The translations under genes and the position numbers were made by a program. Source: Alphaproteobacteria bacterium (GTDB lineage Bacteria; Pseudomonadota; Alphaproteobacteria; SMXQ01). Taken from it: a stretch of 49,760 bases of DNA. This document shows positions 2,261 through 32,412 of the stretch, one piece after another (the stretch's first letter is position 1; each line of letters begins with the position of its first letter). The notes under the pieces are model-generated. The model was given only the letters and a program-made list of their open reading frames with translations, had not been told where the DNA came from and ran no database searches. Location: assembly GCA_029863585.1 (NCBI GenBank), contig JAOTVC010000003.1, positions 1-49,760 on the forward strand. Direction: 5' to 3'.

Positions 2261-2956
2261 ATGACCATGACGCTGACAGGCCGCACCGCGGAACAAGAGG
2301 CCGCCGCAAAGGACACCGCCAGGATCCTTCTCGACATCGGAGCCGTGAATTTCCGGCCCGAGGAGCCCTATATCCTCACCTCCGGCCGGGCCAGCCCGGT
2401 CTATATCGACTGCCGCCGGCTGATCTCCTACCCGGAGGAGCGGGACCGCATCATCGGCTACGCGGCCCGGGCGATCGCGGAGGCGGGATCGGAAAAGGCG
2501 GTCGACGCGGTGGCCGGGGGCGAGACCGCCGGCATCCCCTATGCCGCATGGATTTCGCATCAGATGGGCCTGCCCATGCTGTATGTGCGCAAGCAACCCA
2601 AGGGGTTCGCGCGCATGGCACAGATCGAGGGCGACATGGCGGAAGGGTCCCACGTCCTCCTGGTCGAGGACATGGCCACCGACGGCGGTTCCAAGATCAA
2701 TTTCATCAACGCCATCCGCAAGGCCGGCGGCAGCGTCGATCGCGTCTTCGTGGTGTTCTATTACGGCATCTTCCCGGAAGCGCTGGAGGCGCTGGAGGAT
2801 CTCGGCGTGAAGCTGGTGTGGCTCGCGGTCTGGGCCGACATCATCGACGCCGCCGAAGAGACCGGCGCCTATCCGCCGGAAAAGATCGCCGCCGTCCGCG
2901 CCTATCTCGACGATCCCCACGGCTGGTCCGCGAGCCACGGCGGCAAGGGCGACTGA
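2261..2956 (+). CDS. pyrE: Orotate phosphoribosyltransferase
   Basis: Motifs LTSGRASPVYIDCR and YVRKQPKGF; PRPP motif LLVEDMATDGGS. Confidence 0.95.
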   Translation: MTMTLTGRTAEQEAAAKDTARILLDIGAVNFRPEEPYILTSGRASPVYIDCRRLISYPEERDRIIGYAARAIAEAGSEKAVDAVAGGETAGIPYAAWISHQMGLPMLYVRKQPKGFARMAQIEGDMAEGSHVLLVEDMATDGGSKINFINAIRKAGGSVDRVFVVFYYGIFPEALEALEDLGVKLVWLAVWADIIDAAEETGAYPPEKIAAVRAYLDDPHGWSASHGGKGD

Positions 2957-2989
2957 TCGGGCCCGGGTCTGGGGGCGCGGCGGCGAGCG

Positions 2990-4681
2990 ATGGCGATGAG
3001 ATTCCCGACCTTGACCCGTTTGGCCCTGATCCTGGGGACGGCACTGGGCCTCGGCCTCGCCGGCTGCGACGACAAGACCCAGAGCCGCGATACCCTGGTC
3101 ATCGGCATGACCCAGTATCCGGCGACGCTCAACCCCAACATCGAATCGATGCTGGCCAAGACCTACGTCCTGGCCATGACGCGCCGGCCCTTCACCCATC
3201 ACGATCCCGGCTGGCAACTGATCTGCGCCCTGTGCGAGACCCTGCCGACCCTGGAGAACGGCCTGGCGGTGCCCGAATCCCTGCCCAATGGAAAGAAGGG
3301 GATCGCCGTCACCTACACCATCAAGCAGGGCGCCAAATGGGGCGACGGCACGCCGGTCACCACCAAGGACGTCGAGTTTACCTATGAGGTCGGCAAGCAC
3401 CCGGCGAGCGGCGTCGCCGATGGCGAGCTCTACCGCCGCATCCTCAAGATCGACGTCAAGGACGCGCGCACCTTCACCCTGCATCTCGACCGGCTGACTT
3501 TCGATTACAACTCCATCAACACCTTCCAGGTGCTGCCCGCCCATATCGAGCGCGCCAATTTCAAGGACCCCAAGGAATACCGCCAACGCACCGCCTACGA
3601 CACCGACACCACCAATCCCGGGCTCTATTTCGGCCCCTACCGCATCACCAAGAAGGAGACCGGCTCGCGCATCATCCTGGAGCCCAACCCGACCTGGTGG
3701 GGCAAGAAGCCGTATTTCAAGAAGATCGTCGTCCAAATCATCGAGAAGACCGCGGCGCTCGAGGCCAACCTGCTGTCGGGCTCGATCGGCTACATCGCCG
3801 GCGAACTGGGGCTGCTGGTCGACCAGGGGCTGGCCTTCGAGAAACGCCACGGCAAGAATTTCGATATCGAATTCAAGCCCAGCCTGGTCTACGAGCATAT
3901 CGACCTCAATCTGGAAAACCCGTTTCTGAAGGACCGGCGGGTGCGCCGGGCGCTGATCCTGGCGCTGGACCGCGACGAGCTGTCCAAGAAGCTGTTCGAA
4001 GGACGCCAGCCGGTCGCCGATTCCTTCGTCCATCCCCTCGACTGGGTGCATTCCAAGGACACGCCGCGCTACGCCTTCGATCCCAAGAAAGCGGCGGACC
4101 TGCTGGATGCGGCAGGCTGGGCCAAGCGCGACGGGGAAGGCTTCCGCGTCAACGGCGACGGCAAGCGGCTGACCTTCGAGCTGATGACCACCGCCGGCAG
4201 CCGCACGAGGGAGCTCGTCCAGCAGATCCTGCAAAGCCAATGGCGCAAGGCGGGCATCGACATCCGGATCCGCAACGAACCCGCCCGGGTCTATTTCGGC
4301 GAGACCGTCACCAAGCGTAAGTTCAAGGCCATGGCCATGTTCGCCTGGCTGTCGGCGCCGGAAAGCGTGCCGCGCCTGACCCTGCATTCAGATCAGATCA
4401 CCACGGCGGCGAACAACTGGTCGGGCCAGAATTACACCAGCTACAAGAACCCGGAGGTCGACAAGCTGCTCGATGCCATCGAGGTCGAGCTCGACCGCGA
4501 CAAGCGGGCCCGGCTGTGGGCGCGGCTGCAGAAGATCTACGCCGAGGACCTGCCGGTGTTGCCCCTTTACTTCCGCGCCGACCCGTTCATCATCCCGAAA
4601 TGGCTGAAAGGCATCAAACCCACCGGCCACCAGGACCCGACGACGCTTTGGGTCGAGCACTGGCACGCCGCCACCCCCTGA
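2990..4681 (+). CDS. Peptide/nickel ABC transporter substrate-binding lipoprotein (family 5)
   Basis: Lipobox LAGC; motifs KWGDGTPVT, GPY, DRRVRRAL and EDLPVLPLY. Confidence 0.93.
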   Translation: MAMRFPTLTRLALILGTALGLGLAGCDDKTQSRDTLVIGMTQYPATLNPNIESMLAKTYVLAMTRRPFTHHDPGWQLICALCETLPTLENGLAVPESLPNGKKGIAVTYTIKQGAKWGDGTPVTTKDVEFTYEVGKHPASGVADGELYRRILKIDVKDARTFTLHLDRLTFDYNSINTFQVLPAHIERANFKDPKEYRQRTAYDTDTTNPGLYFGPYRITKKETGSRIILEPNPTWWGKKPYFKKIVVQIIEKTAALEANLLSGSIGYIAGELGLLVDQGLAFEKRHGKNFDIEFKPSLVYEHIDLNLENPFLKDRRVRRALILALDRDELSKKLFEGRQPVADSFVHPLDWVHSKDTPRYAFDPKKAADLLDAAGWAKRDGEGFRVNGDGKRLTFELMTTAGSRTRELVQQILQSQWRKAGIDIRIRNEPARVYFGETVTKRKFKAMAMFAWLSAPESVPRLTLHSDQITTAANNWSGQNYTSYKNPEVDKLLDAIEVELDRDKRARLWARLQKIYAEDLPVLPLYFRADPFIIPKWLKGIKPTGHQDPTTLWVEHWHAATP

Positions 4682-7746: not shown

Positions 7747-8681
7747 GCGCGCTGCACGAGACCGCCCGCCCGGCCGCGCGCGGCCCGCGCACCGTCTGGG
7801 GGCTGCTGTTGCGGCGCCTGCTGGGCCACCAGCTGGCGGTGGGCTCGGCGGCCTTCCTGGTGATCCTGGGCTGCCTCGCGATCCTGACACCGGTCATAGA
7901 GGCGGGCCTGGGGGTCGAGGCCAACGCCGTGGACCTGACCCAGCGGTTTGCCGGCCCCACCGCCGGCCATTGGCTCGGCACCGACGAACTCGGTCGCGAC
8001 CTGCTCGCCCGGCTCCTATACGGCGGCCAGGTCTCGCTGTTCGTCGGCATCGTCGCGGCGCTGGCCTCCGCCGTGATCGGCACCCTGATCGGCCTGCCGG
8101 CGGGCTATTACGGCGGCCGGCTCGATGCCGTCCTGATGCGGTTGACCGACGGGGTCATCGCCCTGCCCCTGCTGCCGCTTCTGATCGTGCTGGCGGCGCT
8201 CGACCTCAACAAGCTGGGCCTGCCCGAGGCACTGGTCAATGACCCCAATGTCAGCCTCTACCGGATGATCGTGATCATTTCCCTGGTGGGCTGGACCACG
8301 GTGGCCCGCCTGGTGCGGGGCGCTGCCCTCAGTCTGCGTGAACGGGAATACGTGCTGGCCGCGACCGCGGCGGGGGCCGGGGGCATGCGCATCATGGCGG
8401 TGCACATCCTGCCCAACGTGGTCTCGCCCATCATCGTCGCCACCACGCTCTCGGTCGGCAACGTGATCCTTCTGGAATCGGTCCTAAGCTTCCTCGGCCT
8501 CGGCATCCAGCCACCGATCGCGAGTTGGGGCAACATGCTGACCGGCGCCCAGGAGCTGATCTGGAGCGCACCGGTTCTGGCCTTCTATCCCGGCATGCTG
8601 ATTTTCGTGACGGTGATCGCCTTCAACTTCCTCGGCGACGGGCTGCAGGACGCCCTGGACCCCCGCGCCATCGAGGGCTGA
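7743..8681 (+). CDS. Peptide ABC transporter permease (OppC/DppC-like)
   Basis: Start moved to ATG 7743 (ATGA overlap) within the 6546..8681 ORF. Motifs HWLGTDELGRD, REYVLAA, HILPN and LSFLGLG. Confidence 0.95.
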   Translation: MSALHETARPAARGPRTVWGLLLRRLLGHQLAVGSAAFLVILGCLAILTPVIEAGLGVEANAVDLTQRFAGPTAGHWLGTDELGRDLLARLLYGGQVSLFVGIVAALASAVIGTLIGLPAGYYGGRLDAVLMRLTDGVIALPLLPLLIVLAALDLNKLGLPEALVNDPNVSLYRMIVIISLVGWTTVARLVRGAALSLREREYVLAATAAGAGGMRIMAVHILPNVVSPIIVATTLSVGNVILLESVLSFLGLGIQPPIASWGNMLTGAQELIWSAPVLAFYPGMLIFVTVIAFNFLGDGLQDALDPRAIEG

Positions 8682-8792
8682 CGGGCCGCCCCGGAGCGGT
8701 CTGGGGGGCATTGAACCGCTTGACCAGGACGGCGTCGGCGACGGCGGCCATGGCCAAAAGCGCGGTCGAATGAGATTCGGCATTCTGACCCG

Positions 8793-8820
8793 ATGACCGC
8801 CTTTGACCCGAGGCGGACAT
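8793..8820 (+). repeat. 28-bp palindromic site, copy 1: ATGACCGCCTT|TGACCC|GAGGCGGACAT
   Basis: Outer 10-bp arms are inverted repeats with one mismatch; 26/28 identical to the copy at 10767. Confidence 0.9.
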
Positions 8821-8856
8821 TGGGATCCCGATGAAATGTGGACCTTATCGCCCCTT

Positions 8857-9606
8857 TTATCGAGGGTTCCGAGTCAACGGCACGAATCGAACGGCGATGA
8901 CCTTACGGCGCACCATTCGCCCGCTGCGATCCTTCTCAAGAACGATGAGAGACTGATGGCCCAGAGCATCTTCCAGGGGCATGACCAAGCGCCCACCCGG
9001 CTTCAGCTGGGCAATCAGGGGCGGCGGGACCTCCTTAGGCGCGGCGGTCACCACAATGCCATCGAAGGGGGCGTGCTGCGGCCATCCCTTATAGCCATCC
9101 CCCGCCCGGACGGTCACATTGGCGTAGCCGAGACGCGCCAGGTCGGCAGCGGCGCGGCGGGCCAGCCCCTCGACGATCTCGATGGTGTAGACATGGCCCA
9201 CGAGAAGCGACAAGACCGCCGCCTGATAGCCCGACCCGGTTCCCACCTCAAGCACCACGTCCTTTGGACCCGGTTGGAGAAGCTCGGTCATCAAGGCGAC
9301 GATGTAGGGCTGGGATATGGTCTGCCCATGGCCGATGGGCAGCGGACGGTCGGCATACGCGGAAGACCGAAGACGCTCCGGGACTAGCATGTGGCGGGGC
9401 ACCGACGCCATCGAGGCCAGCACCCGCGGAGAAATCCGCCCACCGGGGGCGCCGGACCCGGGCTGGATGGCATGGGCGCGCACGGTCTCAACCATTCGTG
9501 CCCGTTCCTTGGCGAAATCCGGCGCCTCGCTGGCGCCACAGGAAACGGTGAATGGCGCGACGGCCCATACAATGCACTTCAGAACCCGTCGCGAAAAGCT
9601 CCTCAT
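8857..9606 (-). CDS. pcm: Protein-L-isoaspartate O-methyltransferase
   Basis: Motifs VPRH, AYADRPLPIGHGQTISQP, VLEVGTGSGYQ, APFDGIVVTAA and VRFVPL. ATG 9606 is preferred over the 9774 ORF start; the start is uncertain. Confidence 0.93.
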   Translation of the reverse strand: MRSFSRRVLKCIVWAVAPFTVSCGASEAPDFAKERARMVETVRAHAIQPGSGAPGGRISPRVLASMASVPRHMLVPERLRSSAYADRPLPIGHGQTISQPYIVALMTELLQPGPKDVVLEVGTGSGYQAAVLSLLVGHVYTIEIVEGLARRAAADLARLGYANVTVRAGDGYKGWPQHAPFDGIVVTAAPKEVPPPLIAQLKPGGRLVMPLEDALGHQSLIVLEKDRSGRMVRRKVIAVRFVPLTRNPR

Positions 9607-9731
9607 GGCCGCACCTATGTAAATCGCTTTCCATTCACTGCATGCAAACAGCCTGCCCCGAACGGCTGGTCTAGTTCGCATGTTAGTCGAGGGGGAACTT
9701 GGGGAAAGGCCAAATTCGGCTGACGCCTCCA

Positions 9732-9759
9732 ATATTCTCTTGTCCGCAAACGCGGACGT
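9732..9759 (+). repeat. Degenerate 28-bp site, copy 2: ATATTCTCTTGTCCGCAAACGCGGACGT
   Basis: Retains the right arm GCGGACGT and contains the hairpin GTCCGC-AAAC-GCGGAC. Left arm and spacer are divergent. Lies between two cargo units. Confidence 0.45.
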
Positions 9760-9826
9760 TAGAGGCCGCATCATGGGACCCTCTCAGAACCATGGATACC
9801 CAATTGCGATGGCAGGACCCAGATTA

Positions 9827-9867
9827 ATATTGACAATTAATTTGTCAATATGACATGTTAGTTGTCG
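9827..9867. promoter_or_regulatory. Tandem TGACA-N7-TGTC[AG] operators overlapping a TTGACA hexamer upstream of the MarR gene
   Basis: Perfect 10-bp inverted repeat ATATTGACAA-N5-TTGTCAATAT (9827-9851). A second copy, TGACA-TGTTAGT-TGTCG (9851-9867), starts 20 bp after the first TGACA. Confidence 0.75.
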
Positions 9868-9891
9868 ATAACAACAGGCGTGGGATGGTCT

Positions 9892-10371
9892 ATGAAATCT
9901 CAGCAGATCGAAGCCTTTTATCCGCTTTCAAGATCGGTGCGGTCGCTGTTCCACAAATTAGCGGCAGCGGCGGAGGCGCTCCATGAAGGAAGCGGCATTT
10001 CGACAGGAATGCGCGCTGTTCTTGAAAACGTCGTTGAGCGTGGGCCCATGACGGTGCCCGAAATGGCCCGCATGCGACCGGTTTCCCGGCAGCACATCCA
10101 GGCCCTTGTGAACGACCTCTTGGCTTTAGGCCTGGTCGGCTATCAGGACAACCCAGCCCACCGGAGATCGAAGCTCGTCAGGGCAACCGAAAAAGGGCAG
10201 GAAGCGTTTTCGGCTCTCAAGAGACGGGAATTCTCAGCCCTAAATCGTCTCGCGAGCGAAATTTCGCCTGCGGCTTTGCAGCAGGCGGACCGCGTACTTA
10301 CGGAACTGATCAGCGCATTCGATAGCGCTCAATGGCACGCCATCACCAAAGAGTTTTCCCCCAAGAGTTAA
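9892..10371 (+). CDS. MarR-family transcriptional regulator
   Basis: wHTH GPMTVPEMARMRPVSRQHIQALVNDL and wing DNPAHRRSKLVRATEKG. Confidence 0.9.
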   Translation: MKSQQIEAFYPLSRSVRSLFHKLAAAAEALHEGSGISTGMRAVLENVVERGPMTVPEMARMRPVSRQHIQALVNDLLALGLVGYQDNPAHRRSKLVRATEKGQEAFSALKRREFSALNRLASEISPAALQQADRVLTELISAFDSAQWHAITKEFSPKS

Positions 10372-10382
10372 GGAGAAGCACC

Positions 10383-10649
10383 ATGGAAAACGAACGTCAA
10401 AATCCCCTGCGCCTGCAGGGCTCTCGCTTTCGGCACTATGCCCTTGAAGGCGCAAAAATCATTGGAATTACGATCGGTCTTGCGTTTCTGGTTTTGGCCT
10501 CTTGGAACATGTTTGCGCCTGACATGTTCGGCCTGGAGCCCATTCGGATGAAGCAAGCGCTTGGCCTCGTGATCTTTACCGGCGTCTTCGCCGGGCTTCT
10601 ACGGTTTGGACACCGCTCGCGGTCTAACAGGGCCTCTCAAGGGGGCTAG
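10383..10649 (+). CDS. Small two-TM membrane protein
   Basis: AAGGAG RBS before ATG 10383; two hydrophobic helices; follows marR and precedes a terminator. Confidence 0.75.
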   Translation: MENERQNPLRLQGSRFRHYALEGAKIIGITIGLAFLVLASWNMFAPDMFGLEPIRMKQALGLVIFTGVFAGLLRFGHRSRSNRASQGG

Positions 10650-10679
10650 CGCCGCTGCCTGACAGTGGATACCGAATGC

Positions 10680-10722
10680 AAGCCCCGTGTCGCAACGAGA
10701 TCGGCACGGGGTTTCGTTTTTT
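10680..10722 (+). terminator. Rho-independent terminator of the marR unit
   Basis: Stem AAGCCCCGTGTCG / CGGCACGGGGTTT followed by CGTTTTTT. Confidence 0.75.
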
Positions 10723-10766
10723 CGGCCATGTAGGTCAATCCGGAGCCATCCCGGTCCGTCAACCTG

Positions 10767-10794
10767 ATGACCGCTTGTGACCCGAGGCGGACAT
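10767..10794 (+). repeat. 28-bp palindromic site, copy 3: ATGACCGCTTG|TGACCC|GAGGCGGACAT
   Basis: 26/28 identical to copy 1; the inverted repeat extends outward (CTG...CAG, 10764-10797). Confidence 0.9.
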
Positions 10795-10908
10795 CAGACA
10801 TCCTTGGCAAAGGATGCCTGCGATTCCGCGATCCATCCTATTTGCCAAGTGGCAACGTAATCATCATTCCTGTTTCTGATGCTGGTACTGGCAAGCAATT
10901 TACATGTT

Positions 10909-11793
10909 CTAGCATCGGGCAATTATGTGGGAATTGTTGCCGCCGCCGCCCTCGACGATTTCAATGTCATTGAAACCGGTAACGCGCAATTGCTCCGTGA
11001 TCTCTTCAACCCGCCATGGATGACCGCCACGTCGGAATATCTCGAGGTCTGAGAGCGATTGGCTAAGCGAGTCAGAGCGAGACGGGATTCCCCCAAAGAA
11101 GAGGAACCCGCCCGGCCTTAGCGCGCGGTTGAGGCGTGGCAGGGCGGAATCGACCACCTGTCGAGGCAGAAAGCTGCTGGGCAGCCAAATAACATCGAAA
11201 GCCTCCTTGTCATCGATGTCGCTAACGTCTTGGCACCGCAGCGTGATCCTGTCCTGCAAACCCTCAGCGGAAATGTTGGTTTCCGCGAGTTCCAGGGAGG
11301 GCTTCCAGATATCAAGACCAACGATCCGCATGTCGGGCCATAGCTTGGCAGCCTCGATTGCCAGCCATCCCACCCCAGTCCCGACATCGAGAAAGTCGCA
11401 GTCGGTTAGGGCGGCATCCAACGCCGGTCTCTGGCGCGCAAGGTTAGCGAAATTTCGAGCGACAGAGCGTGATGCACGCCCCCGCTGCTGCAGAACCGCC
11501 GGGTCCGTATATCCCCAGCCCGGCGCCCGGTTGGGCTCACTCAAGAATTCAAGTGCATCCTGAAGCGCTGAGGTTAAATGGCCAATGACAGTAGCGACGT
11601 GGCCCGGTTCCAACCCATCCAACAGGCCAGGTTCGAGGTTTTTCAGAACGGCATTCATCGCATCTCGGACCTGCGGATCACCCTCTTGTTCCGTTTGACG
11701 CAAGCGTAGTTCAGCGCCCAACGCTCCCATTAATTGCGTGACATTTACAAATTCACGTGTCTTAGCGAGCAGATCTGGATAGCCCATGACCAT
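10909..11793 (-). CDS. Class I SAM-dependent methyltransferase
   Basis: Motifs FLDVGTGVG, IVGLDI, FDVIWLP and ALRPGG; GAGGGG RBS upstream. Confidence 0.88.
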   Translation of the reverse strand: MVMGYPDLLAKTREFVNVTQLMGALGAELRLRQTEQEGDPQVRDAMNAVLKNLEPGLLDGLEPGHVATVIGHLTSALQDALEFLSEPNRAPGWGYTDPAVLQQRGRASRSVARNFANLARQRPALDAALTDCDFLDVGTGVGWLAIEAAKLWPDMRIVGLDIWKPSLELAETNISAEGLQDRITLRCQDVSDIDDKEAFDVIWLPSSFLPRQVVDSALPRLNRALRPGGFLFFGGIPSRSDSLSQSLSDLEIFRRGGHPWRVEEITEQLRVTGFNDIEIVEGGGGNNSHIIARC

Positions 11794-11924
11794 ACCCCTC
11801 CCATTCGCTGTGAATATCTGTCATCCTCCTAATCAGGGAGGGGATTGAAATAATGTGGGGTGGCGCGCGCCCACCACTGGAATGGTAAAGGCTCGCAGGC
11901 CATTTAGAAATTTTCAAGCCGGTT

Positions 11925-11952
11925 ATATCCGCCAATGGCCAACAGTGGGCAT
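11925..11952 (+). repeat. 28-bp site, copy 4: ATATCCGCCAA|TGGCCA|ACAGTGGGCAT
   Basis: Same length and 11-6-11 register as copies 1 and 3, with substitutions in both arms. Confidence 0.65.
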
Positions 11953-12158
11953 TGGGTTGGCGCGCAAGCATCCGCCAGAACCACCTTGCCTGCCCCGCAC
12001 GTTGAATTCGGAATCCACCTGTCAGCTCGCATGCGGAAATTCATCCCGCAATCGTCCGAGATTCTCTAAGCTCCAGATGCCGAGACAATGTTCAATAAGG
12101 GATTTCGAAATTGGGACGAAACCTCAGCACTGAGAGGCAGAAACTTCAAAGTGGGAAA

Positions 12159-12186
12159 AGCCATGTTGCGGCCGACAAGCGGACTG
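12159..12186 (+). repeat. Degenerate site, copy 5 (right half CGGCCG-ACAA-GCGGACT)
   Basis: Spacer-like CGGCCG and right arm AAGCGGACT are present; the left arm is not recognisable. Confidence 0.4.
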
Positions 12187-12313
12187 GCCGTGCCGGTGGT
12201 TCTGGATTGGGCGGCGGCGGGTGTGTGACGGCGGCAGATCGGCTGATGCCAAGATTTCTCCCCATCTGCGGATTTATTTACCGATTAAACTATTGACTTT
12301 ACTTCAGTTCTCC

Positions 12314-12343
12314 ATCCAAATATTATTTGGATAGTAATACTAT
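12314..12343. promoter_or_regulatory. Two adjacent inverted repeats upstream of the 129-aa ORF
   Basis: ATCCAAATA-T-TATTTGGAT (12314-12332) and ATAGTA-A-TACTAT (12331-12343), in an AT-rich tract with TTGACT at 12293. Confidence 0.5.
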
Positions 12344-12388
12344 TGCGGAAGCCAGGTTCCCGACACTAAAAGCAAAGAGGAGATTCCC

Positions 12389-12778
12389 ATGCCGTTCGAT
12401 GAATCCCTTGAGGTGAGATCGGTTGCCAGTATCCGCGCAGCCGTTGCCGACGCTCTCCGTAAATGTGGAAACAAAGAATTCCAAACGATCGAACGAATCG
12501 AGGACTACAGTTGCAACAACGACGTTGCCAACCTTCAGACCGCAGGCACCGTTTTTGCAGCTATCGCCGATGCTCTCGAGGACACGGGCGTGTTCGGAGA
12601 CTATTCCACCGTCGGTGAAGTCATCAAGAAGCTCATCGGCCAGGACCAGCAGAACAAGACCAAATGGATCGCACACCACATCGGCTGTTCCTGTTTGGGG
12701 CTTGCGACCGGCGAGACCGTTGCCGAAAAGATCCTGACACTCGACCTGGCCGGAAGACCTCGCTACGTTCCTGGCTAA
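12389..12778 (+). CDS. Hypothetical protein (129 aa) with HHIGCSC motif
   Basis: GAGGAG RBS, AT-rich upstream region, downstream terminator and globular-protein composition. Confidence 0.8.
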   Translation: MPFDESLEVRSVASIRAAVADALRKCGNKEFQTIERIEDYSCNNDVANLQTAGTVFAAIADALEDTGVFGDYSTVGEVIKKLIGQDQQNKTKWIAHHIGCSCLGLATGETVAEKILTLDLAGRPRYVPG

Positions 12779-12798
12779 TCATGAGCACGCCTCTTAGG

Positions 12799-12840
12799 GC
12801 CCGCCTCTCAACACCTTGTTGGAGGGCGGGCTTAATTTTT
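12799..12840 (+). terminator. Rho-independent terminator
   Basis: 15-bp imperfect stem GCCCGCCTCTCAACA-CCT-TGTTGGAGGGCGGGC followed by TTAATTTTT. Confidence 0.7.
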
Positions 12841-13066
12841 CTCAGTATTTGTAGGAGAGTCCTCCCTTCTCCGTCTTCACGAGCAATAAGTTGTTCGTGG
12901 TTGGTCAGGGGTCTTTGAGAGCACCGATGTGGCTCATCGGCTGTCATCTCAAACAATGAGCAGTGCAAAGTGATTGGAAATCCGGTCAATCCTTTGATGT
13001 CGCCTTTGGCTCCAATCACATAGAGGATTAATGCCGGGGCAAGCCGTCGTTGGGCGGGTTAATCCG

Positions 13067-13093
13067 ACGGCCGGCCTGACCCGAAGCGGACTA
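13067..13093 (+). repeat. Site copy 6: ACGGCCGGCC|TGACCC|GAAGCGGACTA
   Basis: Spacer TGACCC and right arm GAAGCGGAC match copies 1 and 3; the left arm is divergent and 1 nt short. Confidence 0.75.
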
Positions 13094-13124
13094 AACCTCA
13101 CGCGCTGGCCTCTCGCGTGCCACG

Positions 13125-14237
13125 CTAGCGCGTCAGGGCCTTGACGAAGTCTCGCGCCTCGCGCTGTTGGACGTGGAATTCTTCGGTCTGACCGCTTTCG
13201 TATTCGTCGAGCTTGTCGAAATCGATCTTGTGGGCCGGATCAGCCATCGGCACTCCCTGCATCCGGCTGTTAAGTCCGACCAAGGGCATGATCATCTCCT
13301 GGGTCTTCCTCGAGAGTAGCCAGTTGACGAAGACGATGGTGGCGTTGGGGTGGGGTCGAGGGTTCAGGACCTGGATGCCGCAGACTCCCGGGCTCCATCG
13401 CTTCAGGCCGGTGACCTCCCCGATGTTGAGCGTGACGCCGCGCTGTCGATATAGGCGAATGAAGGAGCCCGGAATGCCAATCGAGACCGGATACCTGCCA
13501 CTGACGAACCAGTCCATCAACTGGCGCTCGTTTCTGGTAATGACCGGTTTCTGCTCCTCGATCAGAGCGCGGATGAATGGCTTGCCGTAACGCGTGTCCT
13601 TCAACAGCATCGCCATGGTGATCGAGGCCGACCCTTCAGAAGGCTCCGCCATGGAGATCTTACCCTTCCATTTGGGGTCCAGCATCTCCTTGAGTTCGAA
13701 TTCTTCCTGCTTGATGAAGTCCCTGTTGAAGTAAGCGAAGGTGCTTTCGTAGATGCAAAAGGTCGGGAAGAACTTTTTGCCCCTATCAAGGAACATGTGC
13801 TGAAAGCCGCCATGCCAATTCTTTTCGTCGGTGACCTCGGGCAGCATCAACATTGGTCTCACCTCGGCAATGCCCCCTTGAGAGGAAAGCTGCCAGGCCG
13901 CTGCGGTGGCGCCGCCCACGCGAACGTCCCAGAGGTGCTTGCTGACCTCGCGCTCCTTCAGCACCTTGGGCCAGAAATCGCGACCGGCGAACGGCGTCAC
14001 GGATATCTTGACGTCAGGATAATCCTTTTGGAACCGGGCCAAGACATCACGCCAGGTCCGACCCGTGGGGCCCGCGACCACCAGCCTGCCCTCGTTTCTG
14101 GCAGCGGACACGATCCCGTCCCACTTGGCCTTTCCGGCCCAGTCGGCCGCGGTCGCCGCCAGGGCGCCTGCGCAGAGGATGAACGCACCGAGCCCAGCGG
14201 TCGGAAGGAAACGGCTCGGAGATCGGTGGGATGTCAT
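13125..14237 (-). CDS. Orphan ABC transporter substrate-binding protein (iron/polyamine/2-aminoethylphosphonate-like class)
   Basis: Signal peptide ending ATA-AD; motifs ARNEGRLVV, LDPKWKGKI and PHPNATIVFVNWLLS. Confidence 0.88.
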   Translation of the reverse strand: MTSHRSPSRFLPTAGLGAFILCAGALAATAADWAGKAKWDGIVSAARNEGRLVVAGPTGRTWRDVLARFQKDYPDVKISVTPFAGRDFWPKVLKEREVSKHLWDVRVGGATAAAWQLSSQGGIAEVRPMLMLPEVTDEKNWHGGFQHMFLDRGKKFFPTFCIYESTFAYFNRDFIKQEEFELKEMLDPKWKGKISMAEPSEGSASITMAMLLKDTRYGKPFIRALIEEQKPVITRNERQLMDWFVSGRYPVSIGIPGSFIRLYRQRGVTLNIGEVTGLKRWSPGVCGIQVLNPRPHPNATIVFVNWLLSRKTQEMIMPLVGLNSRMQGVPMADPAHKIDFDKLDEYESGQTEEFHVQQREARDFVKALTR

Positions 14238-14419
14238 GATCAGCCTCGTCTACTAGAAAAGCGGCGATACGCCGGGCAGCCATTGCGGATGTCTCGGCGA
14301 TGCCGGCCCTCAATCCACCCCATATCGAGTCAGGAAAAGGATGGCAATTCTATAGGCGCCCCACATAGGCAAATGGGCATCGCCCCAAGCCGTCAAGCGA
14401 CGCCTTCGGAAGCCGCCAA

Positions 14420-14448
14420 ATGTCCGTTTCTTGGCCAGTCGCGGACAT
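14420..14448 (+). repeat. Site copy 7: ATGTCCGTTTCT|TGGCCA|GTCGCGGACAT
   Basis: Perfect outer arms AATGTCCG/CGGACATT (14419-14449); spacer identical to copy 4; marks the right edge of the lower-GC block. Confidence 0.85.
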
Positions 14449-14504
14449 TAGGTCAACGGTAGAACCATACCTCCGCCCCTGTTTGCCCGGGGGGCGACGG
14501 TCTC

Positions 14505-14559
14505 ATGGATGCCCCGGAGTCAAGCCCACGCGTACCTTCCCACGACCCCGGGGCATGAC
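14505..14559. repeat. REP-like palindrome (GGATGCCCCGG-AGTCAAGCCC...CCGGGGCATGAC)
   Basis: 9-bp inverted repeat ATGCCCCGG (14509-14517) / CCGGGGCAT (14548-14556). Resembles the common alphaproteobacterial GGATGCCCGGGTCAAGCCCGGGCATGAC repeat (recalled, not searched). Confidence 0.6.
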
Positions 14560-14615
14560 CGAATTCTCGTCGCCATGACCCGCCGAATTCGGCCGGGGTT
14601 GATTCGCAGACCGGA

Positions 14616-15452
14616 TCAGCGCGACATGTAGACCGGCACCGTCATCTTTTCCAGGATGCGCCGTGTGGTGCCGCCGAAGACCAGCTCACGCAAACGGAAG
14701 CTACCGTAGGAGCCGATCACCATCATGTCGGCGTTGAAATCGCCGCACTGCTTGATCAGTTCGTCGCCGACCGTGCCGCGGTCGGCGGTCACCTCCACCA
14801 CCTCGCCCCTGACGCCGTGGCGCGCGAGGTGGGTGGCGATATTGGCACCCGGCATCTCGCCATGGGCCATGATGCCCCGTTCGGCGTTGATGACCATGAT
14901 TCGGACCTCGTCCGCCGCCTGGAGCAGCGGCAGCGCGTCGTTGGCGGCCCGGGCCGCCGCGCGGCTTGCGTTCCAGGCCAGCAGGATTCGCTTGCCGACG
15001 GTGTCGGGCGCGCCGGAATAGGGAACGGCGATGGCCGGGCGGCCCGCATCCAGCACCACGTGATCGGGCAGTTCCGGGGCGGCGCCCGCATCCAGGCGCC
15101 CCGGCATGCGCTGGCCCACCACGGTAAGATCGGCATAGCGCGCGTTGACGACCAGCATTTCCGGCACCGCGCCTTCGACCTGGCGCCATTCGGCGGCGAT
15201 GCCGGCGCGCCCAATCTTTTCGTCGAACTGCCGCTTGGCTTCTTCCGCCGATTCCCGCATGAACTTGTCATGGGCCTCGATCAGTTCGGGGCCCAGGTCC
15301 GCCTCGGTGTATTGGTGAATGGGCGCCACCGCCACCACGTAGACCGCGGCGAGATGGGCGTCGTTGGCCTGGGCCAAGCGGATCGCGTAATCCAGGCGGT
15401 CCGGGGTCGCCGGCGACGAGTCGATGTGAACCAGAATATCTTTCAAAGCCAT
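14616..15452 (-). CDS. Universal stress protein (tandem Usp domains)
   Basis: Motifs KDILVHID, ARYADLTVVGQ, ILLAWNASRAAARA and MVIGSYGSFRLRELVFGGTT. Confidence 0.93.
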   Translation of the reverse strand: MALKDILVHIDSSPATPDRLDYAIRLAQANDAHLAAVYVVAVAPIHQYTEADLGPELIEAHDKFMRESAEEAKRQFDEKIGRAGIAAEWRQVEGAVPEMLVVNARYADLTVVGQRMPGRLDAGAAPELPDHVVLDAGRPAIAVPYSGAPDTVGKRILLAWNASRAAARAANDALPLLQAADEVRIMVINAERGIMAHGEMPGANIATHLARHGVRGEVVEVTADRGTVGDELIKQCGDFNADMMVIGSYGSFRLRELVFGGTTRRILEKMTVPVYMSR

Positions 15453-32360: not shown

Positions 32361-32412
32361 AAGGCGCGGCCAAGGCCGCGACAGGCCTCAAGGCGCGGCC
32401 AAGGCCGCGACA
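32361..32412. repeat. Exact 23-bp direct repeat duplicating the 3' end of the HDAC-family gene
   Basis: AAGGCGCGGCCAAGGCCGCGACA at 32361-32383 and 32390-32412. Confidence 0.9.

Follow-up and report, generated by a model that had tools for sequence, protein, structure and literature searches.

Two-centred palindromic repeats resembling REP units as candidate joints of variable gene modules in an alphaproteobacterial genus

Why should near-identical 28-bp palindromes recur between unrelated genes in a short stretch of an alphaproteobacterial genome? The question is raised by positions 8793 to 8820 of contig JAOTVC010000003.1 (assembly GCA_029863585.1), whose first 49,760 nucleotides were analysed here and are called the window. 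A preliminary description of this focal site noted an 11-6-11 layout like that of tyrosine-recombinase sites, held that the sites are neither dif nor attC, and attributed them to a different recombinase. The quoted sequence agrees letter for letter with an exact 11-6-11 palindrome of 28 bp, and the first observation, that these 28-base palindromes are real repeat copies, is confirmed. We judge it about an even chance (a probability near 0.5) that they are units of the type known as repetitive extragenic palindromes (REPs) and bacterial interspersed mosaic elements (BIMEs), acting as joints for recombination and insertion and lacking a dedicated linked enzyme.

The source genome, G000 (4.09 Mb in 383 contigs, with 7% contamination), was examined together with four relatives, G001 to G004. 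All five genomes of this genus set are fragmented metagenome bins, and open reading frames (ORFs) were called by length only. When up to three mismatches are allowed, the focal 28-mer matches the window twice, at 8793 and 10767, while 100 shuffles yielded no match at all; three more window copies, at 11925, about 13067 and 14420, came from a less stringent scan and a profile search (Table 1). A profile built from genome copies returns 89 non-overlapping candidates in G000, with 71 at E<0.5 and 43 at E<1e-3 in nhmmer, the latter being termed strong sites. These units are repeated, extragenic and fixed in geometry. Although ORFs of 100 aa or longer cover 89% of the genome, 39 of the 43 strong sites fall outside them. 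The fixed spacing of arms and core suggested by the window copies held in this larger alignment: under a 28-bp model there is no indel in 42 of the 43 strong sites, or in 64 of the 71 sites at E<0.5. Strong sites are found within 400 nt of a contig end in 10 of 43 cases, compared with 7.5% of the genome.

The conserved unit exceeds the palindrome itself. It consists of (GGGCTT)GTTAAC-CYG, the 28-bp palindrome and a weak NRG, for a total size of 28 to 46 bp. Among the strong sites, a GTTAAC-like box is present on one side of 37, on both sides of two and on neither side of four. The focal site is one of these four, and to its left are a decayed box, TCTGAC (8784-8789), plus CCG. The four nucleotides preceding the stem are CCTG, CCCG or CCTC, and the arms are inverted over 10-11 bp (ATGWCCGCTT) around a centre of 6-8 nt. 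Read from the box side, this centre is TGACCC in type A sites and TAGCCA or TGGCCA in type B sites; among 71 distinct hairpins from G000 and related genomes, 28 carry TGACCC and 23 carry TAGCCA, with close variants making up the remainder. The core counts first reported for the window were correct (TGACCC at 8804, 10778 and 13077; TGGCCA at 11936 and 14431), as was the remark that the right arm is the better conserved. In 40 full-length G000 sites, a subset of those at nhmmer E<0.01, the right arm departs from the consensus 35 times and the left arm 57 times, and 12 of the latter departures are one recurrent A at position 4 that creates an A-A mismatch.

The sites mark the joints of low-GC accessory modules that are absent or replaced in relatives. 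Mean GC over 600 bp is 0.546 on the box-less side of the sites and 0.623 on the box side, compared with 0.648 for the genome, and values under the 10th percentile of the genome were found for 31 of the 36 cases that could be measured on the box-less side, versus 12 of 42 on the box side. The cargo consists of single accessory genes, which include methyltransferases, binding proteins, GGDEF and cyclase proteins, Flp-pilus genes, hydrolases and many ORFs without a family. The 120-nt flanks on the box-less side gave no matches among one another.

Three loci were compared with the four relatives, of which G002 is the closest. The loci occupied in G000 are bare spacers of 18-84 bp, without a site, in G001 and G004 at all three places and in G003 at two, the third locus not being matched in G003. 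At the window island, only 18-40 bp without a site separate the flanking stop codons in G001, G003 and G004; the G002 locus, of which one side only is visible, holds other genes and a decayed hairpin by the same stress-protein gene. The second locus (C373, 25288-26725) is empty in G001, G003 and G004. In G002 this slot retains its flanks, boxes and hairpins around different cargo, and homology ends at the inner foot of each hairpin. The third locus (C255, 5436-6791) is empty in G001, and G004 lacks a larger stretch; G002 retains both sites around different cargo, with right-hand homology starting at the hairpin centre. Between the sister genomes G000 and G002, homology breaks at the hairpins, at their inner foot or in their centre, at all four boundaries of C373 and C255. 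The strong resemblance between the arms and the divergence of the empty loci prevented placement of the crossover any finer than at the hairpin. A comparison of unit ends showed no target-site duplication. Separately, one empty spacer in G001, after an endonuclease III gene (G001:C23, about 10812-10896), is taken up by a 12-nt unit (GGCCTCTGAACC) repeated in tandem about six times.

The two centre types follow a pairing rule around cargo. Among 31 pairs of neighbouring G000 sites within 6 kb, 12 have their boxes outward and so enclose cargo, and every one of these that could be typed joins one TGACCC site with one TAGCCA site (11/11). Fourteen pairs are in tandem (nine A-A, two B-B and three untyped). 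In the other five the boxes point inward, and three of these are tight inverted doublets with 15-38 nt between the sites (two A plus B, one with an untyped partner). Orientation alternates in 17 of the 31 pairs and is tandem in 14; within the window it alternates throughout, the order being A(+), relic(-), A(+), B(-), A(+), B(-) with one or two genes per interval. G004 carries a B-B-B array at a spacing of about 1 kb, and two-box sites are found in relatives as well. A further rule, that A sites follow genes and B sites precede them, holds for the three window modules and fails genome-wide, where the gene ends that face a site show no bias (9 versus 10 for A sites, 4 versus 5 for B sites).

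Recognition of the unit as a single-stranded hairpin had been offered as an alternative to recognition of its sequence, with arm covariation proposed as the deciding analysis. Across ten stem pairs of the 71 distinct hairpins we counted 105 one-sided changes and 4 compensated ones, whereas shuffling of partners gives a mean of 2.9 compensated changes (p 0.33). This outcome disfavours recognition of the hairpin alone. Because the arms do not covary and their bases are fixed, base-by-base recognition is favoured over selection on structure alone. The absence of covariation is also expected from young copies in neutral decay, and decayed copies are common. When folded as single-stranded DNA, only the focal copy is strong (-7.8 kcal/mol, z -5.7).

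The boxed motif is frequent throughout the genus, with 31, 24, 37, 23 and 34 matches in the five genus genomes. Of 36 other genomes from the family and class, four have one to four matches, while a control pattern read backwards gave no match in these 41 genomes or in 301 sampled genomes. The bare hairpin, with one mismatch allowed, occurs in 9 of the 301 sampled genomes of the class, representing eight genera, and has the same two centres. A public species collection contains 67 exact matches. Of these, 39 are in nine uncultured Alphaproteobacteria or Rhodospirillales bins, and the other 28 are singles in unrelated taxa, for which our own estimate of chance matches is roughly 17. In other families the hairpins have no GTTAAC box and are mostly paired as inverted doublets with a spacing of about 17 nt, usually of one A and one B unit, that lie between ordinary metabolic genes; this arrangement agrees with that of BIME or REPIN doublets. 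There the array order is hairpin B, cargo, hairpin A, about 17 nt, hairpin B, and onward, and in genome G115 the "cargo" between doublets consists of ordinary metabolic genes without GC contrast. A blastn search of a plasmid collection with a 46-nt site gave no match, and a literal literature search for the arm 10-mer gave unrelated primers alone among the matches listed.

We favour a reading in which the unit is REP/BIME-like and its centre has two fixed, asymmetric forms, TGACCC (A) and TAGCCA or TGGCCA (B). A protein acting in trans would read the arms and centres base by base, and the repeats would serve as portable joints for the insertion, loss or swapping of DNA. Swaps would proceed through recombination between like units and through mobile elements that target the unit, rather than through a recombinase gene linked to the arrays.

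The closest match is to the transposase-less REP families of Alphaproteobacteria (Di Nocera et al. 2013, PMC3733652; for further comparison of REPs, BIMEs and the REP doublets called REPINs, see Nunvar et al. 2010, PMC2817692, and Ton-Hoang et al. 2012, PMC3333891). According to the portions of PMC3733652 cited here, families without a transposase predominate in this class and form head-to-head dimers that include two different units. The unit may prove identical with a catalogued family. The REP/BIME/REPIN habits are present: short extragenic palindromes in tens of copies, two unit types joined in inverted doublets with short spacers, singles alongside doublets, stems that start with A-T, an insertion element that targets the loop, and spurious ORFs. 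As reported for the CGTC families of REPs, there is no adjoining transposase. Missing here are a gene for the REP-associated tyrosine transposase (RAYT), the enzyme that moves REPs, and a CCA tail, and an unpaired tag of the GTAG or CGTC kind is not clear. In the text description of the CGTC families, which lists CCTC as a CGTC variant, stems are 8-9 bp and centres 4-5 nt, and this sets them apart from the hairpin here with its stem of 10-11 bp and centre of 6-8 nt; four text supplements of the same paper contain neither GTCCGC nor GCGGAC. Units in the genus also differ from REPs in that they bound low-GC cargo differing between sister genomes.

Two of these habits can be seen directly in G000. 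The remark that such palindromes produce spurious short ORFs was right, with ORFs beginning at 10767 (+, 68 aa), 8820 (-, 65 aa) and 14420 (+, 52 aa); they run in both directions because the arms read ATG...CAT. REPs are known targets of insertion sequences (PMC1525189, as far as the part cited goes), and here a miniature element of 150-250 bp, whose inverted ends read GAGGCTGTTGAA, lies within the hairpin centre at four places where both of its ends are present; two further single ends abut hairpin halves (Table 1). Its apparent target duplication is the middle four bases of the hairpin centre, and no full-length parent was found. A truncated IS110-type gene abuts a two-box site on contig C30. 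On the same contig, an 80-nt stretch from outside the box occurs in two copies of 95% identity, spaced 3.1 kb apart (7790-7855 and 10965-11030), and the second copy adjoins the truncated IS110-type transposase gene and the two-box site.

Several points weigh against the REP/BIME-type reading. RAYT was not found in the genus genomes, and therefore the defining partner of classical REPs and REPINs is missing. The unpaired GTAG or CGTC tag of catalogued families is not evident, most G000 sites are single rather than in doublets, and sites lie between divergent as well as convergent genes with no bias in the gene end that faces them. Two features go beyond ordinary REP behaviour: the units act as joints of variable low-GC modules, and the cargo lies strictly between an A and a B site. 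This 11/11 pairing, together with arrays of like sites about 1 kb apart, is what one would expect of site-specific recombination or of distinct transposon ends. With 28-47 bp of imperfect homology, exchange by general recombination should seldom occur. Arms and centres that are near-identical across families need a sequence-reading protein, and none was found. Finally, the bins are fragmented (G000 as described above), and repeated genes may be missing from them.

A tentative alternative, which we consider possible and yet doubtful, is dedicated site-specific recombination by an enzyme that tells the two centres apart, with the arms bound and strands exchanged across the 6-bp centre. Laboratory recombinase-mediated cassette exchange offers an analogue. 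A module with one A and one B site would be stable because unlike centres could not recombine, while paired events between like centres would swap modules between loci, and a circle with a single site would integrate at a like site to give tandem arrays. Much of the evidence above would fit. The 11-6-11 geometry is fixed in 42 of 43 strong sites, bases are fixed without covariation, and two discrete asymmetric centres are kept across families. Enclosing pairs are A plus B in 11 of 11 cases, for which our own arithmetic gives a chance of about 3e-4 if half of random pairs were mixed. The tandem pairs of G000 (nine A-A and two B-B), the B-B-B array of G004, and slots whose cargo changes between G000 and G002, with homology breaking at the hairpins, would be expected products, and two-box sites (2 of 43 in G000, several in relatives) could be empty docking sites. 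The alternating orientations of the window recall dif-module arrays with C and D modules in the part of PMC13141974 cited, although genome-wide 14 of 31 pairs are tandem.

The same comparison extends to the pdif sites and dif modules of Acinetobacter. According to the parts cited of PMC6449649, PMC13141974 and PMC7399989, these are likewise asymmetric 28-bp 11-6-11 sites with single accessory genes between them, so that a module has like sides inward or like sides outward; an insertion-sequence family also targets them (PMC10132070, in part). In contrast, the palindromes described here have two centre types rather than one, are chromosomal rather than plasmid-borne, and alternate in orientation throughout the window but not over the whole genome. 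The view that they are not dif sites proved correct. Contig C288 carries a canonical dif-like site to which the hairpin arms bear no resemblance, and because the arms are unrelated to this host dif, use of XerCD is unsupported. The C288 site occupies the first 30 bases of the contig on the minus strand (CGCATAA, 6 nt, TTATGG) and is probably the true chromosomal dif.

The proposal of a different recombinase fared less well, since no candidate enzyme tracks the sites in the genomes searched. The tyrosine recombinases number four in G000 (XerC, XerD and two P4-like island integrases) and three in G002 (XerC, XerD and one of island type), and the two non-Xer integrases of G000, which are P4-like, were rejected as the general partner. 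No integrase was found in or beside the arrays scanned. A Pfam search of 225 ORFs in and around arrays, in which TnpB was not searched by family, found no intact recombinase or transposase and fragments of mobile-element genes only. Other candidates, likewise rejected, proved sporadic: serine recombinases are present in two of the five genus genomes, IS91-type Y2 transposases in one of the five only, and IS110-type transposases as four matches in G000 (at least the C30 copy truncated) and in two of five other hairpin-bearing genomes. The absence of a gene is weak evidence here, because the genus genomes are fragmented metagenome bins and that of G000 is contaminated.

One further enzyme attracted attention by its position. 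A tyrosine recombinase of 211 aa, comprising the catalytic domain only and of the size of an invertase, adjoins hairpins of G001 in two copies that are 88% alike (G001:C208:937-1569 and G001:C114, local positions 2591-3223). In G115 (C22, local positions 1431-1647) its last 48 codons remain, beginning right after a hairpin doublet, and in G113 it lies near a half hairpin. Overall it does not co-occur with the hairpin, being present in 12 of 301 sampled genomes, one of the 12 belonging to the nine that bear hairpins, and it has no adjoining hairpin in other lineages. It was rejected as the partner, and we read it as one more accessory gene landing beside hairpins.

A wider form of the same idea, which we regard as rather unlikely, is that some Alphaproteobacteria run a gene-cassette system of their own, in which chromosomal slots are flanked by two sites with the same arms and different centres and a recombinase, perhaps encoded away from the arrays, would swap or stack cassettes between like centres only. 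To our knowledge, integrons have been reported missing from Alphaproteobacteria. If the cassette-system reading were true, the sites would be a natural counterpart of engineered cassette exchange.

Integron attC sites provide an instructive comparison. They have outer boxes with GTT and AAC triplets and delimit arrays of single unrelated accessory genes. The present system resembles them in its arrays of accessory genes between related palindromic sites, in the GTT and AAC triplets contained in GTTAAC, and in the rare two-box sites ordered box, spacer, arm, arm, spacer, box. However, sequence rather than structure is conserved, orientations are mixed and cargo direction is not fixed. The claim that the sites are not attC therefore also stands: boxes flank both sides in only 2 of 43 strong sites, units measure 28-46 bp in fixed sequence, and no integron integrase exceeds the cut-off (TIGR02249, best score 80 bits versus a cut-off of 265, those matches being two Xer genes). 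Another comparison is with the dRS3 repeats of Neisseria, together with intergenic mosaic elements and "minimal mobile elements". There too a short inverted repeat is both REP-like and a site of recombination or integration, and gene slots hold strain-variable cargo, whereas the sequence here is different and neither a natural-transformation signal nor a Piv-type integrase is tied to the hairpin sites. CGTC-1 elements in Neisseria correspond to dRS3 in the account given in PMC3733652, as far as it was drawn on here.

It is improbable, in our view, that the A and B sites are instead the two ends of non-autonomous, hairpin-ended transposable units that carry cargo and are moved by an enzyme encoded elsewhere, as Y1 transposases move IS200/IS605 elements, with doublets as the joints of neighbouring units. 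This would account for enclosing pairs of one A and one B site with the tag outward, for hairpins at both ends without a target duplication seen on comparison of flanks, and for the order of hairpin B, cargo, hairpin A, about 17 nt and hairpin B in other families. Yet the RAYT/Y1 family (PF01797), rejected as a partner, is present in none of the five genus genomes and in one of six other hairpin-bearing genomes. In addition, G000 and G002 carry different cargo between ends and outer flanks that have stayed in place, a pattern that a transposon moving as a whole unit would not give. Many sites are single or in tandems of the same type, and the genes between doublets of G115 are, as noted, ordinary ones with no GC contrast.

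Very improbable is a role as binding sites for a host DNA- or RNA-binding factor, or as sequences acting in the transcript, with no part in recombination and with an island association that arises by co-travel with imported DNA: fixed bases without covariation, extragenic position and placement between ordinary genes in other families would agree with it, but the distribution is patchy (9 of 301 sampled genomes), homology breaks at the sites at three loci, there is no bias toward gene starts or ends, no Rfam match and no T run after the hairpin, and decayed copies are common.

If the palindromes are only REP-like, they still constitute a well-defined family without a transposase in uncultured Rhodospirillales and a warning to annotators about spurious ORFs and contig breaks at repeats. 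The 28-bp unit marks the entry, exit and replacement of accessory genes, with two centre types and unlike partners around cargo. It makes the question of small accessory-gene slots in bacteria without integrons a testable one, and it offers a precise DNA bait for the protein that reads it.

The features of the window island are collected in Table 1. GC is 0.55-0.57 over 10-14 kb. Three of the window copies are imperfect. Site 3 has decayed arms, and the expected hairpin fold was not obtained for 11925-11952; the hairpin of site 4 (about 13067-13091) has a left arm shorter by one base; and that of site 5 is 29 bp long, one base over 28. The possible half-hairpin relic beside the focal site gave no nhmmer match; if it is real, the two would once have formed an inverted doublet, a suggestion drawn from the letters in which we have low confidence.

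Table 1. Sites, relics and cargo of the window island, and copies of the miniature element; positions refer to the window unless a contig is named
Feature	Position	Strand	Details
Focal site, type A	8793..8820	+	arms ATGACCGCCTT / GAGGCGGACAT; core TGACCC at 8804-8809
Site 2, type A	10758..10794	+	box GTCAAC 10758-10763, CTG, hairpin 10767-10794, core TGACCC 10778-10783; E 2.3e-11
Site 3, type B	11925..11961	-	hairpin 11925-11952, core TGGCCA 11936-11941, TGG, box GTTGGC 11956-11961; E 0.083
Site 4, decayed type A	13058..13091	+	box GTTAAT 13058-13063, CCG, core TGACCC 13077-13082, right arm GAAGCGGAC; E 3.1
Site 5, type B	14420..14457	-	hairpin 14420-14448, core TGGCCA within TTGGCCA, TAG, box GTCAAC 14452-14457; E 0.13
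Decayed short hairpin	9740..9759	-	GTCCGC-AAAC-GCGGAC then TAG; 5' side of PCMT module; read from sequence
Possible half-hairpin relic	8751..8767		TGGCCA plus right-arm-like stretch; 25 nt left of focal site; read from sequence
Whole island, 5.9 kb	8682..14615		between stop codons of peptide-permease and universal-stress-protein genes
PCMT (protein-L-isoaspartate O-methyltransferase), cargo	8857..9774	-	Pfam PF01135, E 6.5e-60; 3' end toward focal site
MarR-family regulator (9862-10371) and small membrane ORF (10332-10649), cargo between two sites	9862..10649	+	Pfam PF12802; ORF calls
SAM-dependent methyltransferase, cargo	10909..11793	-	Pfam PF13649 and others
129-aa cargo ORF, no Pfam family	12389..12778	+	ORF call, Pfam scan
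Extracellular solute-binding protein, cargo	13125..14237	-	Pfam PF13416
Miniature element copies	C96:3836-4059, C333:6554-6702, C21:14236-14383, C37:8137-8284; single ends C3:323, C361:12657		ends GAGGCTGTTGAAGAACTC

Two of the cargo genes have counterparts elsewhere in G002. A copy of the PCMT module with 87% identity is present there; it has a type-A site of its own, and its box-side flank differs. Homology between the two copies stops about 15 nt short of the decayed hairpin at 9740-9759. The homologue of the 129-aa ORF lies in a small insert that adjoins a tRNA gene and has no hairpin sites. This insert (G002:C332:5380-6290) measures about 850 bp and is flanked by a direct repeat that comprises about 45 bp from the 3' end of the tRNA; reading the stretch by eye revealed no integrase gene. 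In two further sediment runs, covered as assembled contigs only, the order of the island is unchanged and no joint across cargo was found, a result that is uninformative either way.

An Rfam search over 8500-14700 gave no match at E values up to 1. About 40 nt before site 2, at 10683-10715, the small membrane ORF is closed by a GC-rich stem and T run that resemble an intrinsic terminator, and transcription of that module therefore need not use the palindrome. Elsewhere in the window, at 32361-32412, a 23-nt direct repeat (AAGGCGCGGCCAAGGCCGCGACA) occurs in two exact copies spaced 29 nt apart, with a short palindrome in each, and a third copy, 83% alike, is found at 1594-1616.

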